Shown here: positions 48,086 through 54,736 of the stretch, piece after piece
How the letters are laid out: each line of letters begins with the position of its first letter
Numbering within the stretch: position 1 is the stretch's first letter
Assembly: GCA_963718895.1 (NCBI GenBank)
Contig: CAVRAG010000007.1
Span: forward strand, 64,001-128,000
Reading direction: 5' to 3'
Source: an uncultured Nitrososphaerota archaeon
GTDB lineage: Archaea; Thermoproteota; Nitrososphaeria; Nitrososphaerales; Gagatemarchaeaceae
Length of the DNA stretch: 64,000 nucleotides
Translations under genes and position numbers: made by a program
Notes under the pieces: generated by a model
The model's input: the letters and a program-made list of their open reading frames with translations, nothing else
What the model was told of the DNA's origin: nothing
Database searches by the model: none

Positions 48086-49570
48086 ATGACTTCTGGGGCC
48101 ATCCTGGTGAAGGACTATGCAATCAAGCGCGTATCGACGGGCAACGCCGACCTCGACGAGCTTCTGAGCGGGGGCGTTCCGAGGGGGAGCCTGATCCTCG
48201 TGGCGGGCAACCCGGGGACGGGTAAGACGATATTCACCGCCGGCTTCCTCTATGACGGGGCCAGGAACAAGGGCGAGAGCGGGATCTACATCTCCTTCAG
48301 CGAGGGCAAGCGAAGCTTCTACGAGGAGATGAAGACGGTAGGGCTCGACTTTGAGAGCATCGAGAAGGAGGGCCGCTTCCACTTCCTCGAGATGTTCTCG
48401 GCTACGAGGGAGGGAATGGGAAGGTTGACCTCCGACATTGTCGAGGCGATAAAGAAGTTCGAGGCGAAGCGGCTTGTGATTGACTCGTACTCGGTCATGG
48501 CCCAGGCGACCGGGGGCCATTACGAAGGACGGCAGATCCTCCACACGGTCCTGAGCAAGGTCGTGAGGAACCTTGGGTGCACGACACTTATCATCGCGGA
48601 GCAGCCGAGCGGGGACCTTCGTCTGGGGGACGCGTCAGAGGAGTTCGTGGCAGACGGCGTCCTGAACTTGAAGATGACCATCCCCCGCGAGCTCGAGATC
48701 AGGAAGATGAGGGGGACGAGGCTGAAGACGAGGGACGCCCTCTACACGATAGACAACGGCTTCCGCGTCGCGACGACCAGGCTGAGATCCCCCGCCGCAC
48801 CCCAGAGATGGAAGCCCATCCCTGACTCAGGGGAGCTCATCTCCACAGGCAGTTCGGACTTTGATGCGATACTCGGAGGAGGTTTCCCCAAGGGATCGTA
48901 CTTCGTGGTCGAGATGGCGACCGACGTGCAGATCAGCGAGATGCGCCTCGTCACCCGCGCCATCTCGTTGAACTTCATCAATCAGGGCAGGGGGACCATG
49001 ATAGTCCCCACCGGCGGCGTCGATGGCCGGGGGATCAAGGAAGCGTGGAGCCCCTACACGACGGAGAAGGAGTTCGATAGCTACGTGAGGATCCAGGAGC
49101 CCGTCCCGGGACTCAAAAAGAAAGAGTCCGAGAAGGCGAAGCACCCGTACACGGTCCCCGTCATGCTCGCCGAAGGAGCCAGGGACGAGAAGGAGATCGA
49201 CGCAAGCTCTGAGTCCTTCGACGCCGCCTACGACGACCTGAAGGCCAGGACTCACGGCCACCCGGTCCTCAGGAACATCGGCTACGACAACATTGAGGCC
49301 AGCTACGCGAGGTTCCCCGAGAAGCTCCTGAACGAGGTCGGGACGGCCATAGTTCAGACCAGGTTGAGGGGGGACCTGACCATGGGCATCGCCCGGCCGA
49401 ACTTCTTCATACTGCCGAAGGTGCTCGGCATGGTCGACCTACACGTCAAGCTATGGAAGAAGGACGGGGTGCTGTTGCTCCAGGGCGTGAAGCCCTACAC
49501 GAACATCTATTCCGTAGACTGCGACGTTACGCTAGGATATCCCGTGATGAAGCTCTCGATAATGATCTAG
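48086..49570 (+). CDS. KaiC/RAD55-family ATPase with a degenerate second (GvpD-like) domain
   Basis: GNPGTGKT, SFSE, IDS, KMRGT; second domain starts ISTG..DFD.ILGGGFPKG but has no Walker A. Confidence 0.85.
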   Translation: MTSGAILVKDYAIKRVSTGNADLDELLSGGVPRGSLILVAGNPGTGKTIFTAGFLYDGARNKGESGIYISFSEGKRSFYEEMKTVGLDFESIEKEGRFHFLEMFSATREGMGRLTSDIVEAIKKFEAKRLVIDSYSVMAQATGGHYEGRQILHTVLSKVVRNLGCTTLIIAEQPSGDLRLGDASEEFVADGVLNLKMTIPRELEIRKMRGTRLKTRDALYTIDNGFRVATTRLRSPAAPQRWKPIPDSGELISTGSSDFDAILGGGFPKGSYFVVEMATDVQISEMRLVTRAISLNFINQGRGTMIVPTGGVDGRGIKEAWSPYTTEKEFDSYVRIQEPVPGLKKKESEKAKHPYTVPVMLAEGARDEKEIDASSESFDAAYDDLKARTHGHPVLRNIGYDNIEASYARFPEKLLNEVGTAIVQTRLRGDLTMGIARPNFFILPKVLGMVDLHVKLWKKDGVLLLQGVKPYTNIYSVDCDVTLGYPVMKLSIMI

Positions 49571-50399
49571 ACCCTCTGGCCCCCTCGCCGTCGGACCCGG
49601 CGAGATGAAGAGGTCTTCCGACCCGGCTCCGCTTGCTGGACCGGACAAAGAGGAGGTACTTCCTGTGCCTGTACGCACGTTCCGATGTCAAGGCCTTCCT
49701 CACGGCCTCGGTCGGTCTCGCCCGCGAGAGGTACTCTACCACGACGTCGCAGTCGCGTATCTCGCCGAGGGCGTCCTGCCAGACCCTCAGGTCGCTGACA
49801 AGCCTCGACTGGTTCCTCACCGAGGGGAAGAGTTCTAGGGTGTATCTCAGCCGCTTGCAGTGCTTGCGGAGCGAGTGCAGCTCGTCGACCTTGGCTTCGT
49901 CCTTGAGCGCGACGCGCGACTCGAGCGCTATCTCGGCTTTCAGTTCGTCGAGGGCGCCCTCGGCCCGCCGGGCGAACCTCGGCAGGTCCCGCCTCGCGAG
50001 CTTTGGAGGGTGGTGTTCGAAGAGTTTCCATGCGGCCTTTCTCGTCCGGTCTACGAACTCCTCCCTCTCCTCCCCGAGGTTCTTCAGCATGAAGGCCACG
50101 GTCGAGTCCTCCTTGTGCCTCGCGATCCTCTCGCTGAGAAGGTCGACGTCCCTGATCCGGGATGTCTCCCTGAGGACTTCCCGGCACCTCTCGTGGCACC
50201 GGCGCATCGCCTTCTCCTTCTGCGCGCCCTTGGGGAGGACCCTTATCGCGGCGTCGAGCCTCCTCACGGCCGCGCGCAGGCTCTTGGTCTGGGTCCTCCC
50301 GGGGTCGCCGAGGTACTCCCGGAGCGCCTTGTTCAGCCTGTCCTTGAGCCTCTCGTAGTGGTCGAGGAACTGGATTACGGTCGCGCTAGTCTCCGTCAT
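49527..50399 (-). CDS. CHAD-domain (polyphosphate-binding) protein
   Basis: LR.AVRR, IRDVD, LHSLRKHCKRLRY.LE, QD.LGEIRD. Confidence 0.9.
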   Translation of the reverse strand: MTETSATVIQFLDHYERLKDRLNKALREYLGDPGRTQTKSLRAAVRRLDAAIRVLPKGAQKEKAMRRCHERCREVLRETSRIRDVDLLSERIARHKEDSTVAFMLKNLGEEREEFVDRTRKAAWKLFEHHPPKLARRDLPRFARRAEGALDELKAEIALESRVALKDEAKVDELHSLRKHCKRLRYTLELFPSVRNQSRLVSDLRVWQDALGEIRDCDVVVEYLSRARPTEAVRKALTSERAYRHRKYLLFVRSSKRSRVGRPLHLAGSDGEGARGSRSLSRASSRDILA

Positions 50400-51108
50400 G
50401 GAGATATCTGTCTATCCTGCCCTGGAGGTCTGCGTTGACTTCGAAGATCGTGCGGTTCGCGTCTATCGGGACGAGCCCGTGAGTCCTCTCCATCCGCTTG
50501 AACTCCTTGGCCATCATCTTCTGATAGATGACGAACGAGTCGAAGAGGTCGTCCGAGAGCCCCAGGTCGGCCCCTGACTCATAGTAGTCGAGCCCGGAGT
50601 ACTTCTGAAAGACTCGGTGGAAGAGCTCGCCCGGGTCCACGTCCAGGTAGAAGACGAGGTCGGGCTTCATGGTGAACCCGAAGAGGTCGTGGGACCACTT
50701 CCTGCTCGTGCCCCTCACGATGCTCCTCGCTATCAGCGTGTAGATGTAGCGATCCGCGAGCACGATGTAGCCGGCTTCTAGCGCGGGGATTATCTTGTGC
50801 TCGAGCTGGTCCGCAAAGTCTGCGGCGTAGAAGAGGGTGAGGGTCTTCTTGCCCAGGGGCAGCTTCTGCTTCGCCTCGAGGATCCCCTTCCCGATCAGCT
50901 CCGACCTCTTGAGCCCGGTCGTCGCGACGGCGTGACCCTCGGACTCGAGCTTTGCGGTGATGAGCTCGACCTGCGTGCTCCTTCCAGATCCGTCGGGTCC
51001 CTCTAGGACGATCAACCTGCCCTTGATCTCCCTTCCCTTGAGGTAGGGGATCCCGTCCCCGTAGAAGGTGAGCGGCCTCGGTCCCAGGGCCTTCCCCGAC
51101 CTGATCAC
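50386..51108 (-). CDS. Thymidylate-kinase-like protein B (Walker A Lys replaced by Arg)
   Basis: LEGPDGSGRST, ADRY, PDLVFYLDV. Confidence 0.88.
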   Translation of the reverse strand: MIRSGKALGPRPLTFYGDGIPYLKGREIKGRLIVLEGPDGSGRSTQVELITAKLESEGHAVATTGLKRSELIGKGILEAKQKLPLGKKTLTLFYAADFADQLEHKIIPALEAGYIVLADRYIYTLIARSIVRGTSRKWSHDLFGFTMKPDLVFYLDVDPGELFHRVFQKYSGLDYYESGADLGLSDDLFDSFVIYQKMMAKEFKRMERTHGLVPIDANRTIFEVNADLQGRIDRYLHDGD

Positions 51109-51806
51109 TGGGAATCCAGCTCCCTAAGTGCGATGGCGGCCGCGGCGGCTGGTAGGAGCTCCACGACCTGTCTCCGCATCTGCGCCTGCTGAACCTCGAT
51201 GTCGAGTGACCCGTCCATCACCCTGAATCCCTCGGTCGCAGCCATGGCCTTGTACTCCTCGATTATCCGGGACTGGAATATCCTGTAACTCTCGTACTCG
51301 TCGTTGGCGAGGTTGAGGTCCATCCCGGCCTCGTAGTACTTCAGCTTGGGCCGGCCGGTCAGTATCCGCTGCACCGCCACTTCGACGGGGACGTGGTAGT
51401 AGAAGGCGGCGTCGGGCTTCGCCGCGAAGCTGTAGACCCTCCGGACCCACCGTGGGTTGCAGCCCCTGACGGCGTCCCTGGCGAAGGCCGTGTAGACGTA
51501 GCGGTCCGCCAGGACGAAGTACCCGGCGCGGAGAAGCGGGGCGACGTTCCTCTCGTACCTGTCGGCGAAGTCGGTCGCGTGCAGGAGGCTGAAGGTCGTT
51601 GGCGTGAGGAGCGCCTTCTTCTTCCCCTTGGAGGTGATCTCCTTGACGACCTCCGAGGAGTTCCATTCGGTGTTGAAGACCAGCAGCCCCAGATGCCGGA
51701 GCCACTTGTCGAGCAGATGCAGCTGCGTGGACTTGCCCGAGCCGTCGATCCCCTCGACGACGATGAGCCTGCCACGGGGCCGCTCCCTTGGCGCACCCTC
51801 CTTCAC
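51105..51806 (-). CDS. Thymidylate-kinase-like protein A (candidate polyphosphate kinase catalytic subunit)
   Basis: VEGIDGSGKST, EWNSS, ADRYVYTAFARD..RG, YYEAGMD. Confidence 0.88.
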   Translation of the reverse strand: MKEGAPRERPRGRLIVVEGIDGSGKSTQLHLLDKWLRHLGLLVFNTEWNSSEVVKEITSKGKKKALLTPTTFSLLHATDFADRYERNVAPLLRAGYFVLADRYVYTAFARDAVRGCNPRWVRRVYSFAAKPDAAFYYHVPVEVAVQRILTGRPKLKYYEAGMDLNLANDEYESYRIFQSRIIEEYKAMAATEGFRVMDGSLDIEVQQAQMRRQVVELLPAAAAAIALRELDSQ

Positions 51807-51819
51807 GCTCGTCCCCGGC

Positions 51820-53328
51820 CTACCTCCGGACTACCGGGACGGCCTGCTCCCGCTCCTGGTATCGGTGTATCAAGGTCTTGACCCTCCTGCCGGTTGTGTC
51901 CTCGAGCTCCCGCTCGGCCTGTTCGAGCAGCAGCCCCGGGAAGTCCTTCCTGTGGGTGACGATCTCGATCCTCAACGCTCCGTCCCTGACCCTGATCTGT
52001 GCGGTCGACTTCGTCAGCCGGATGACCTCGGCGAGCTGGATGAAGGCCGCCAGCTTGTCGATGGACTCCCTGGTCTTGTCCCTGAGGAAGGACCTGTAGC
52101 GGTCGTAGAACAGGTTCGCGGTCTTTGGGGCCTTGGCCCTCACGAACGAGAGGGCGAGGGCGATCTGGTCCCTGTTGTCCAGGAAGCTGTCCTCGCTCAG
52201 GATGGCGTAGAAGAGGCTCTCCGCCCTCGTCGCGAGGTAGAGGTCGAGGAACGACCCCATCGCTTCGTCGAGCATCGCCCTCTCCCGCGGGGTGACGATG
52301 CCGGCGGAGGCGAGCCCTCGGCTGAAGGCCCCGGTCCCTGACTGCTCGGATTGCCAGACCGCCAGGGAGTCGTTGGCCCTCGCCTCGTCGAACTCTTCCC
52401 CGGAGTATGCGGCAGGATCCCGAAGGTACTCGGAGAGGACGCCGTCCCTGAGGCCGTGGGTGCTCACTATCACCTCGTCGAACTTCAGCCTGCTCATCAT
52501 CGTCGAGACGACCTGCGAGCCCGCGGTGATGCTCTCCGCACGGTCTCTCCCCAGGGCGTCGATCTCCGCTATCTTCTCGGGGTCCATCTTCCGCAGCCTC
52601 TTGTTCATGACCGCGATCGACTTCCGCCTGATCCGGTAGTTGTGAAGCTTGTTGAGGGGGTACTCTCTCATCCACTGGTCGTACTTGGCCAGCGCCCTTA
52701 TGGTGCCACCCACGCCGAGGAGGACCGTCTCCGCCGTTAGCCCCAACTCCTCCCGCGTCGGGAGCAACTCCGAGATCCTCCTCCTCATCGCATCGTAGTC
52801 CTTCTTGGAGTACCTGCGGCCCTCGCGGCCGTAGAGTTCGCTGAGCCGGAGTGCCCCGACCGGCAGCGAGTGTATCTTTCTTACGCGGAACCCCCTCGCA
52901 TACGTGAGCTCGAGGGACCCGCCGCCGAGGTCAAAGAAGAGGACGTCGGGCAGGCGCGTGGCGCGGGCGGCGCCGACGTACGAGAAGAGCGCCTCTTCGC
53001 TTCCGGAGAGAATCTTGAACCTGAGACCCAGTAGCGACTCGGCCTCCCTCTGGAACGTATCGCCGTTCGCGGCGTCCCTCACGGGCGAGGTCGCGACCGC
53101 CAGCACCCGCTCGACACCGGAGAGGCTGTTCACTTCTTTCAGGAGCGCAAGCTCCCTGAGGGTCCTCCCGATCGCCTCCTGCCCGAGGAAGCCCGTCTGG
53201 TTCAACCCTTCGCCGAGCCGGGTGAGGCTCCCGCGCTGGTCGTAGGCGTGGAACGAGCCGTCGAGCCGGACGTCGTAACTGACCATCTTCAGCGAGTTGT
53301 ACCCCAGGTCAATAACGGAGGCTCGCAT
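51820..53328 (-). CDS. ppx: Ppx/GppA exopolyphosphatase
   Basis: IDLGYNS, ATSPVRDAAN, EEA, DLGGGSLE, GGT.RAL, GLRDG. Confidence 0.93.
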   Translation of the reverse strand: MRASVIDLGYNSLKMVSYDVRLDGSFHAYDQRGSLTRLGEGLNQTGFLGQEAIGRTLRELALLKEVNSLSGVERVLAVATSPVRDAANGDTFQREAESLLGLRFKILSGSEEALFSYVGAARATRLPDVLFFDLGGGSLELTYARGFRVRKIHSLPVGALRLSELYGREGRRYSKKDYDAMRRRISELLPTREELGLTAETVLLGVGGTIRALAKYDQWMREYPLNKLHNYRIRRKSIAVMNKRLRKMDPEKIAEIDALGRDRAESITAGSQVVSTMMSRLKFDEVIVSTHGLRDGVLSEYLRDPAAYSGEEFDEARANDSLAVWQSEQSGTGAFSRGLASAGIVTPRERAMLDEAMGSFLDLYLATRAESLFYAILSEDSFLDNRDQIALALSFVRAKAPKTANLFYDRYRSFLRDKTRESIDKLAAFIQLAEVIRLTKSTAQIRVRDGALRIEIVTHRKDFPGLLLEQAERELEDTTGRRVKTLIHRYQEREQAVPVVRR

Positions 53329-53355
53329 GGTCGCTAGCTCTCTCTCCGCACTATA

Positions 53356-53862
53356 TCAGTTGCTTCGCGCCAGTTTCCTCATCTGCCTCGGAGTCATCAG
53401 CCACCTGAGCTCCCCGGAGGGCTTCGGCGTGAACGAGGTCACCACCACCCTGGCGGCACCCGCCTTCTTCAGGACTATCCTTACACCTCTGCTCCCGGCT
53501 ACGAGCTCCCCGATCATCTCGCTCAGGTAGGGCTCGTGACCGACCAGCATGACGGTCGAGTCGCGCTTCAGCCCGGAGAGCCTCCTGTACAGCGCTTGGG
53601 TCTCGCCCTCCGGCTTCAGCTCGTCCCAGACCTCGACAGCGTCCTCCTTCTCTAGGACCTTCGATGCGATCACCGCCGTCTCCTTGGCGCGTCTTCAGCG
53701 GACTCGCCACGACGTGGTCGACGTCCACCCCGAGCCGGCCTGAGACGCCGCGACCTCCTCGACCTCCTTCTTGCCTGATACCGTAAGAGCTCGCTCGAAA
53801 TCCCTGCCTGCGGCCTCAATCCGCTTGCCGGCCTCACCGTGTCTTAGGACTATGAGGTCCAC
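53356..53862 (-). CDS. sixA: Phosphohistidine phosphatase SixA; two indels near 53735 and 53690
   Basis: MDLIVLRHGEA..R.LT..G, SPL.., LVGHEP, LKKAG. Confidence 0.88.
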
Positions 53863-53951
53863 TTGGAATCGCCATCGTATTCTGCGTCCACGGAGCCTAG
53901 TCGCCGCTAGGAGAACGTTTCACATATAGAGAATATGGATGATATGGCGGA

Positions 53952-54477
53952 CTACTCCTCGTGCATGCAGTTGGGGCACTCCCACCTGAGGATCGACTCC
54001 CCCGCTGCCGACGACCTTCTTCATCACCCCCGAGTTGCAGGCGGGGCAGAGCAGCTCGTCCTCGGTCCCGCCCTGGTTCTGACGGTGCAACGAGTCCACG
54101 ATTCCCTGCTTGGAGCTCGCTCTCGCTATGTCTGTGATGGTCACCCACCCCACCAGCCTGTCGTGGTCGATGACGCCGAGGCGTGTGACTCCGTTCTCGG
54201 TTATCTTCTTGGCGGCCTCCTTGACCGAGGCGTCGGCGCCGATCTTGAGGAGGGGCGCCATCACCTGCTTGACCTTCACCTCTTCCGGGCGCTTGTTGAG
54301 TTTCATGAACCTGCGGAGTAGGGCCCTGTCGGTGAGCATCCCTATCGGCTTACCTTCCTGGAGGACTATCGTCCCGTTCGCTTTCCTCTCGTTCATCACC
54401 CTCGCGGCCTCGAGGACGCTCGCGCTCGCGTCGACCTGGGGCACGTCCTTCGTCATGACTTCCCGGACCTTTGGCAT
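53952..54477 (-). CDS. CBS-pair protein with C-terminal Zn ribbon; indel near the G/C run at about 54000
   Basis: Two CBS repeats, then CPAC...; the shifted frame gives ILRWECPNCMHEE*. Confidence 0.85.
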
Positions 54478-54736
54478 CTTGTTCGACCGCAATTCGGCGT
54501 CTAGGTAATTCAACCTTTCGTGGGTTCTTGCTCACTCTGACGCGGGGAGATGGGGAGGACCCGCTTCCGCGGCGAGTGCCCGAACCGGACTCGCCGGGCG
54601 CACACAAAATCAAGACCCTTCTCTCGCCTGATCGCACGAGCGACCTCTTCGCGATCCGTCGAAGGGACGGCGCCGACAAACCGGTTCTGTTAATTCATCG
54701 GCTCGTGGGCGGGATTTGTCGGAGTGTTAAGTGTCT

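Follow-up and report, generated by a model that had tools for sequence, protein, structure and literature searches.

We analyzed a window of 64,000 nucleotides (nt) from an uncultured Nitrososphaerota archaeon (NCBI GenBank assembly GCA_963718895.1, contig CAVRAG010000007.1, positions 64,001 to 128,000 of the forward strand). On its minus strand we observed a set of five co-oriented genes running from 53862 to 49527 in the order sixA-ppx-kinase A-kinase B-CHAD, as defined by open reading frames and profile matches (Table 1). The spacing between successive genes is 27, 13, -4 and -14 nt, which confirms the five tightly packed genes described at 49527..53862 in an earlier note on this DNA, with sixA lying in two pieces as assembled. 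We consider it very probable (roughly 0.88) that these genes form an operon in the order of the polyphosphate (polyP) kinase PPK3, in which kinase A likely moves phosphate reversibly between ATP/ADP and polyP and kinase B is predicted to bind to kinase A and likely activates it.

Table 1. Genes of the operon, in their order on the minus strand (positions in the window; aa, amino acids)
Feature	Position	Strand	Description
sixA	53356..53862	-	phosphohistidine-phosphatase family, RHG motif; two pieces as assembled; TIGR00249 on both
ppx	51820..53328	-	502 aa; Ppx/GppA-family exopolyphosphatase; PF02541 E 3.9e-48
kinase A, predicted catalytic-type PPK3 subunit (cPPK3)	51105..51806	-	233 aa; PF02223 E 1e-20
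kinase B, predicted regulatory-type PPK3 subunit (rPPK3 clade)	50386..51108	-	240 aa; PF02223 E 1.5e-21
stand-alone CHAD protein	49527..50399	-	290 aa; PF05235 E 2.1e-17 (polyP binder by family)

The operon and its conservation

The reference system is the operon of Sulfolobus acidocaldarius consisting of saci_2017 (SixA), saci_2018 (PPX), saci_2019 (cPPK3), saci_2020 (rPPK3) and saci_2021 (CHAD) (Hofmann et al., J Biol Chem 2026, PMC12995831; bioRxiv 10.1101/2024.08.28.610084; used here and below in its accessible parts). Saci_2019 is described there as the catalytic subunit and Saci_2020 as an inactive activator, which together make up the alpha2-beta2 polyphosphate kinase PPK3 (SaPPK3), and thymidine monophosphate (dTMP) is not phosphorylated by either subunit (PMC12995831). 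This is the report to which the earlier note had pointed for a polyP kinase pair beside ppx in Sulfolobus.

We found the arrangement to be kept in related loci. Counting by eye, we saw kinase A ahead of kinase B at 79 of 80 related loci, with the full five-gene order at 24 of the 80, many of these loci being incomplete; a stricter script gave kinase A before kinase B in 75/80 loci and the full order in 19 of the 58 loci with room for it. From this conservation we can conclude that the arrangement is not due to chance, which answers the survey of gene neighbourhoods proposed earlier. The Ppx protein carries the motifs IDLGYNS, GSEEA, DLGGGS and GLRDG and scores 248 bits against TIGR03706, below the cut-off of 307, and the CHAD protein is basic (66 K+R versus 44 D+E) and carries the motif HSLRKHCKRLRY.

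Some variation of the layout was observed as well. One locus (L013:3714-6522) holds the same operon without ppx, so that sixA leads directly to kinase A, kinase B and CHAD, and in eight loci (L023, L025, L026, L029, L031, L032, L033 and L050) the CHAD gene is relocated, lying divergently on the upstream side of sixA. In another genome of the same genus (G060; loci L121 and L122) there are two PPK3 operons, whose identities to kinases A and B are 86% and 68-73%; at 9% contamination this is possibly a binning artefact.

Assignment of the two kinases

Kinase A scores 198 bits against the cPPK3 homolog of S. tokodaii (PDB 2plr/5h70) versus 52 bits against the best true dTMP kinase. Its motifs are the Walker A sequence GIDGSGKST, DRY, and TEWNS at the position of the EP motif of the dTMP site. 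For comparison we used the subunit pairs from 17 genomes of one family (f21) as c and r references; this family was read as Sulfolobaceae, as the upstream protein of locus L104 equals the 5h70 chain by eye and the downstream starts in L093 and L094 match the published saci_2020 primer. The mean identity of kinase A is 49% with the 17 Sulfolobaceae-type c subunits and 27% with the r subunits of the same genomes, and kinase A retains K25 (the Walker A lysine), R102 (the DRX arginine) and 14/14 of the c-type basic columns. By its sequence, kinase A is thus predicted to be a PPK3 subunit of the catalytic type.

For kinase B we calculated 115 bits against 5h70 versus 51 against true dTMP kinases, and the top Foldseek matches of its predicted structure (87.6 by the predicted local distance difference test, or pLDDT) were all the S. 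tokodaii protein st1543. Identity values leave its type ambiguous, with 36% to the c and 33% to the r subunits of f21. However it falls into one clade with the Sulfolobaceae-type r subunits, with support of 99/98 in a 38-row mixture-model tree and 96 in an 80-row quick tree, both calculated on chosen subsets of rows, the Sulfolobaceae rows standing on a long stem.

The same trees separate the pair from canonical thymidylate kinases: kinases A and B together with both Sulfolobaceae-type subunits split from canonical tmk at 100/100 in the 38-row tree (4 tmk rows), and PPK3 rows split from tmk at 100 in the 80-row tree (12 tmk rows). The EP motif is missing from kinases A and B and present in 11/11 outgroup tmks, which were recovered from 16 regions, and in the tmk of this genome FP occupies the position. 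This separate tmk was found on contig C4 (C4:333872-334408; TIGR00041 88 bits versus a cut-off of 83.25) and is 25-30% identical to kinases A and B, so the objection anticipated in the earlier note, that the pair might hold the only tmk of the genome, does not apply. The PPK3 clade, the motifs and the gene order support the proposal made in that note, that the pair would be a heteromeric polyP kinase and not two dTMP kinases.

A modelled A2B2 complex would agree with binding between the two kinases: its score was 0.68 versus 0.26 for the best of three controls, and the mark set for such models was attained by 116 of 157 solved complexes and by 2 of 215 mismatched pairs. Between runs, 53% or more of the contacts coincide, with a partner pLDDT of at least 75. 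In the model the interface would be formed by helix against helix, which is the usual dimer surface of the dTMP-kinase fold, and for this reason the model may have passed through its likeness to solved kinase dimers. An N-terminal extension of kinase B, FYGDG at residues 18-22 (51058-51037, minus strand), precedes the P-loop and is predicted to contact kinase A in the modelled complex. This F/W-Y-G-x-G extension is shared by 61 of 90 related B subunits; of the f21 r subunits, 0 of 17 have it.

Kinase B has motifs of its own. Its Walker A motif is GPDGSGRST, with arginine for lysine, and TGLKR stands at the EP position, whereas the arginine of DRY is kept. The inactivity of rPPK3 has been ascribed to the loss of the DRX arginine, with an alignment legend that names Saci_2020 and STK_15420 only (PMC12995831, accessible parts). 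Among 91 distinct B subunits from outside the Sulfolobaceae (kinase B and 11 bacterial ones included), DRY is present in 91/91 and the Walker A lysine is replaced by arginine in 91/91, numbers which have to be read with the knowledge that the set was collected with kinase B as query, after dropping 16 duplicate rows, and is biased toward its kin. The f21 r subunits have DGY in 17/17 and a Walker A residue that is arginine in 12 and lysine in 5. Because dTMP kinases, c subunits and B subunits all carry the arginine, f21 seems to have lost it secondarily. The explanation published for the inactivity of rPPK3 fits the Sulfolobaceae-type copies only, so that regulation in this family would be better tested on a pair of the type described here. 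No report of a kept DRX arginine in rPPK3 was found in the literature, though the figures of the PPK3 paper (alignment S14, cleft S16, tree S19) and the preprint supplements may show it.

Judged from these sequences, kinase B most probably has weak catalysis or none, by a route other than the one taken in Sulfolobus, in which the arginine is kept while the Walker A lysine has changed to arginine and half of the c-type basic residues (7 of 14 alignment columns) are lost, other basic columns being gained. The site of kinase B may also be a working one, a possibility that we regard as doubtful: within PPK3, B would then serve as an allosteric sensor of nucleotide or polyP or as a slow catalyst, and the dead r subunit of Sulfolobus would be a derived, decayed state. 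This would fit the contrast between DRY and DGY given above, and the long stem of the Sulfolobaceae-type r subunits (2.11 versus 1.1 for their c subunits). It would also fit the arginine at column 110, which B-type subunits retain and the Sulfolobaceae-type r subunits have lost, the arginine of TGLKR (column 50), which is invariant and particular to B subunits, and the invariance of D39, G42, R43, D119, R120 and Y121 in 47 aligned B proteins. However, exchange of the Walker A lysine for arginine usually impairs catalysis in P-loop enzymes, and it is found here without exception; the loss of the basic columns argues against a working site as well, and the conservation may be structural in a set that leans to close kin of the query.

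Source of polyphosphate and the place of PPK2

The assignment of the pair would give the operon the following working. By analogy with SaPPK3 (PMC12995831, accessible parts), the A2B2 complex would build polyP at a high ATP/ADP ratio and regenerate ATP at a low one, with kinase B activating kinase A through binding. From what is known of their families, Ppx would trim polyP to phosphate and the CHAD protein would bind it. A PPK2 encoded elsewhere in the genome may spend PPK3-made polyP on the phosphorylation of nucleotides, as far as can be judged from co-occurrence.

The earlier note had described the operon as having no PPK1 or PPK2, which holds within the operon, where kinases A and B gave no match to PPK2 models in a Pfam and NCBIfam search, but not for the genome as a whole. 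A PPK2 gene is present on the same contig at about 730 kb from the operon (C7:843599-844238, equal to L005:1227-2058). Its C-terminal piece alone clears TIGR03709, which we take to be the model for class III PPK2, with 278 versus 247 bits. The gene has one frameshift, but the extra base is missing from a short-read contig (X4, depth 2.6) and 25 of the 28 PPK2-positive genomes of the family show a full-length PPK2 match in one piece; a ppk2 pseudogene is therefore unlikely. PPK1 was not found in this genome, which is 80.5% complete so that a ppk1 could be missed, and it was not found in 60 genomes of the family either. Since no PPK1 was found, PPK3 is most likely the source of polyP in this lineage.

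Next, we consider how PPK2 and PPK3 are distributed, with the reservation that all counts of co-occurrence are drawn from related, non-independent genomes. The 60 family genomes fall into 25 with PPK2 and PPK3, 5 with PPK3 only, 3 with PPK2 only and 27 with neither, and two of the 30 PPK3-positive genomes showed a single subunit. The corresponding numbers for genus g9 are 4 with both, 1 with PPK3 only, 0 with PPK2 only and 15 with neither. Among 65 genomes of two further families (f2 and f4) the pair was found in 16 and PPK2 in 6, all of them within those 16, and the other 49, which are PPK3-negative, yielded no PPK2. PPK3 without PPK2 occurs in 17 of 18 f21 genomes, PPK2 being found in none of the 18, and in 10 of the 16 PPK3-positive f2/f4 genomes. 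A sample of 400 genomes of the phylum contained 12 with a full-length PPK2, each of which also has PPK3 (6) or PPK1 (6), and in four loci (L039, L110, L111 and L112) the PPK3 operon has a PPK2 nearby, no farther away than about 2-6 kb. In the accessible part of Data S1 of PMC12995831, PPK3 stands in 9 of 35 Nitrososphaerota rows and all 5 PPK2 rows are among those 9. By these counts it is PPK2 that depends on PPK3, rather than the other way round. This nesting mirrors the pairing of PPK1 with PPK2 described for bacteria (PMC11968564, accessible parts). A link between PPK2 and PPK3 was not found in the literature, though the figures of the PPK3 paper and the preprint supplements may show it.

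That PPK2 is nearly always found in genomes with PPK3 or PPK1 hints that PPK3 makes polyP in vivo despite its bias in vitro. A wider proposal, which we regard as speculative and unlikely, joins this hint to the reading of kinase B as a working subunit: the second subunit outside the Sulfolobaceae would have a live, remodelled site (Walker A arginine, DRY, TGLKR) able to sense nucleotide or polyP or to turn them over, the two-site PPK3 would be ancestral, and in soil Nitrososphaerales the enzyme would take the place of PPK1 in vivo, synthesising the polyP that PPK2 draws on. If this were true, the lone assayed enzyme would be an atypical member of its family.

Several points weigh against an operon for reversible polyP synthesis with PPK3 as the polyP source. 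The sole assayed PPK3, that of Sulfolobus, is about 50% identical to kinase A and about 30% to kinase B, so that the activity of the present pair is a predicted one. Neither tree resolves the branch that unites kinase A with the c subunits of Sulfolobaceae, kinase B just clears the cut-off of the dTMP-kinase model TIGR00041 (84 versus 83.25 bits), and it has not lost the DRX arginine, a loss stated as a feature of rPPK3. PPK2 is encoded in three genomes of the family, 69-82% complete, in which no PPK3, PPK1 or Ppx was found. In addition, SaPPK3 is about 50-fold faster in vitro in forming ATP from polyP than in the reverse direction (PMC12995831), and the synthesis of polyP may be a capacity of all PPK2 classes (PMC11968564). 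As to the synthesis of polyP expected in the earlier note, SaPPK3 does make polyP, at a high ATP/ADP ratio and under ATP recycling, but with the opposite direction so favoured (PMC12995831, accessible parts).

The bias of SaPPK3 in vitro and the possible synthesis of polyP by PPK2s, together with the joint presence of PPK2 and PPK3 in 25 of the 60 family genomes, could be taken to mean that PPK3 serves ATP regeneration only and that PPK2 makes the polyP. We hold this to be quite improbable, as PPK3 stands without PPK2 in most f21 genomes and in more than half of the PPK3-positive f2/f4 genomes, PPK2 was found in none of the PPK3-negative f2/f4 genomes, and SaPPK3 does yield polyP when ATP is recycled. 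Finally, that kinases A and B are ordinary nucleoside monophosphate kinases for dTMP or another substrate which merely adjoin ppx would agree with Pfam, NCBIfam and the source names, all of which say dTMP kinase, and with the deposition of the S. tokodaii structure as such, yet it is extremely improbable given the Sulfolobus orthologs without dTMP kinase activity (PMC12995831, accessible parts), the missing EP motif, the separate tmk and the gene order kept across archaea.

Neighbouring genes, assembly quality and known systems

Two neighbouring genes were considered as further members of the operon and rejected. A CBS-pair protein with a C-terminal CxxC and an apparent frameshift near its end is encoded at 53920-54513 (minus strand), co-oriented and 57 nt upstream of sixA, but such a gene lies upstream in just 4 distinct loci (L008, L010, L014 and L015; L121 is a duplicate) among 117 searched. 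On the other side, a KaiC-like ATPase with a GvpD-like second half (48086-49570, plus strand) is convergent with CHAD, which it overlaps by 44 nt, and is seen in the closest loci only.

As assembled, sixA consists of pieces of 55 and 105 aa, separated by single-base indels near 53741 and 53694. A single short-read contig of 151 nt (run X1, depth 2) departs from the assembly at exactly both of these sites, the sixA genes of relatives (44 found in 69 related loci) are open over 120 codons from the RHG motif in 44/44, and the indel load is high in the whole assembly, with 27 of 122 scored orthologous genes broken. From these three observations an assembly error is the most probable cause of the break, and we rejected a sixA pseudogene or a recoding site. 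With 27/122 genes broken, frameshift findings in this genome need read support.

The enzyme, its gene order and its presence in Nitrososphaerales are already published (PMC12995831), and the operon as such adds little. Two features that the earlier note had suggested as new were thus known before: SixA and CHAD are joined to the kinase pair in the saci_2017-2021 operon, and PPK3 in a different archaeal lineage has been reported for Nitrososphaeraceae, its distribution being given as Sulfolobaceae, Nitrososphaeraceae and scattered bacteria (PMC12995831, accessible parts). What is extended is the range of hosts, to a likely Ca. Gagatemarchaeaceae host, with PPK3 in 30 of the 60 sampled genomes of this family. 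The nearest named relative of kinases A and B is that of Ca. Gagatemarchaeum stordalenia (91-93% identity). The family is the non-ammonia-oxidising acid-soil group I.1c (PMC10640624); polyphosphate is not mentioned in the main text of its description as judged by a term search, and the family has no row in the examined part of Data S1 of PMC12995831, though members resembling Gagatemarchaeaceae may be shown in the figures of that paper or in the preprint supplements. In four loci of Thermoplasmata (L035, L038, L040 and L068) we observed the pair at 70-77% identity, nested beside the clade of kinases A and B in the trees, and the sequences suggest that the PPK3 pair may have been passed between acid-habitat archaea.

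Compared with known systems, the operon agrees with that of SaPPK3 in its five identical genes and their order, with the c-type kinase first (GKS, TEWNS, DRY) and the r-type second, and the genome resembles S. acidocaldarius in having a separate tmk elsewhere and no PPK1 found. It differs from the SaPPK3 operon in the length of its Ppx (502 aa) and in the additional PPK2 of the genome. Most PPK3 genomes lack PPK1 and PPK2, as a majority trend and not a strict rule (PMC12995831, accessible parts), a trend that is not followed by this host, where PPK2 is present and PPK1 was not found. Unlike the Sulfolobaceae type, the r-type subunit here has DRY in place of DGY, a Walker A residue that is arginine in all B subunits, and the N-terminal extension. 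With the predicted PPK3 of Nitrososphaeraceae, Nitrosotalea and a Nitrosopumilus sp. (accessible part of Data S1 of PMC12995831) the pair has in common that both subunits fall into the same archaeal subclade, at 60-70% identity, whereas the host here probably belongs to a non-ammonia-oxidising soil family. Fold, P-loop and DRX motif are common to the pair and canonical thymidylate kinase (PF02223, TIGR00041), from which kinases A and B are set apart by the missing EP motif and their separate clade (100/100). With the PPK2 family (PF03976; TIGR03709) the pair has in common that a P-loop kinase would act between polyP and nucleotides.

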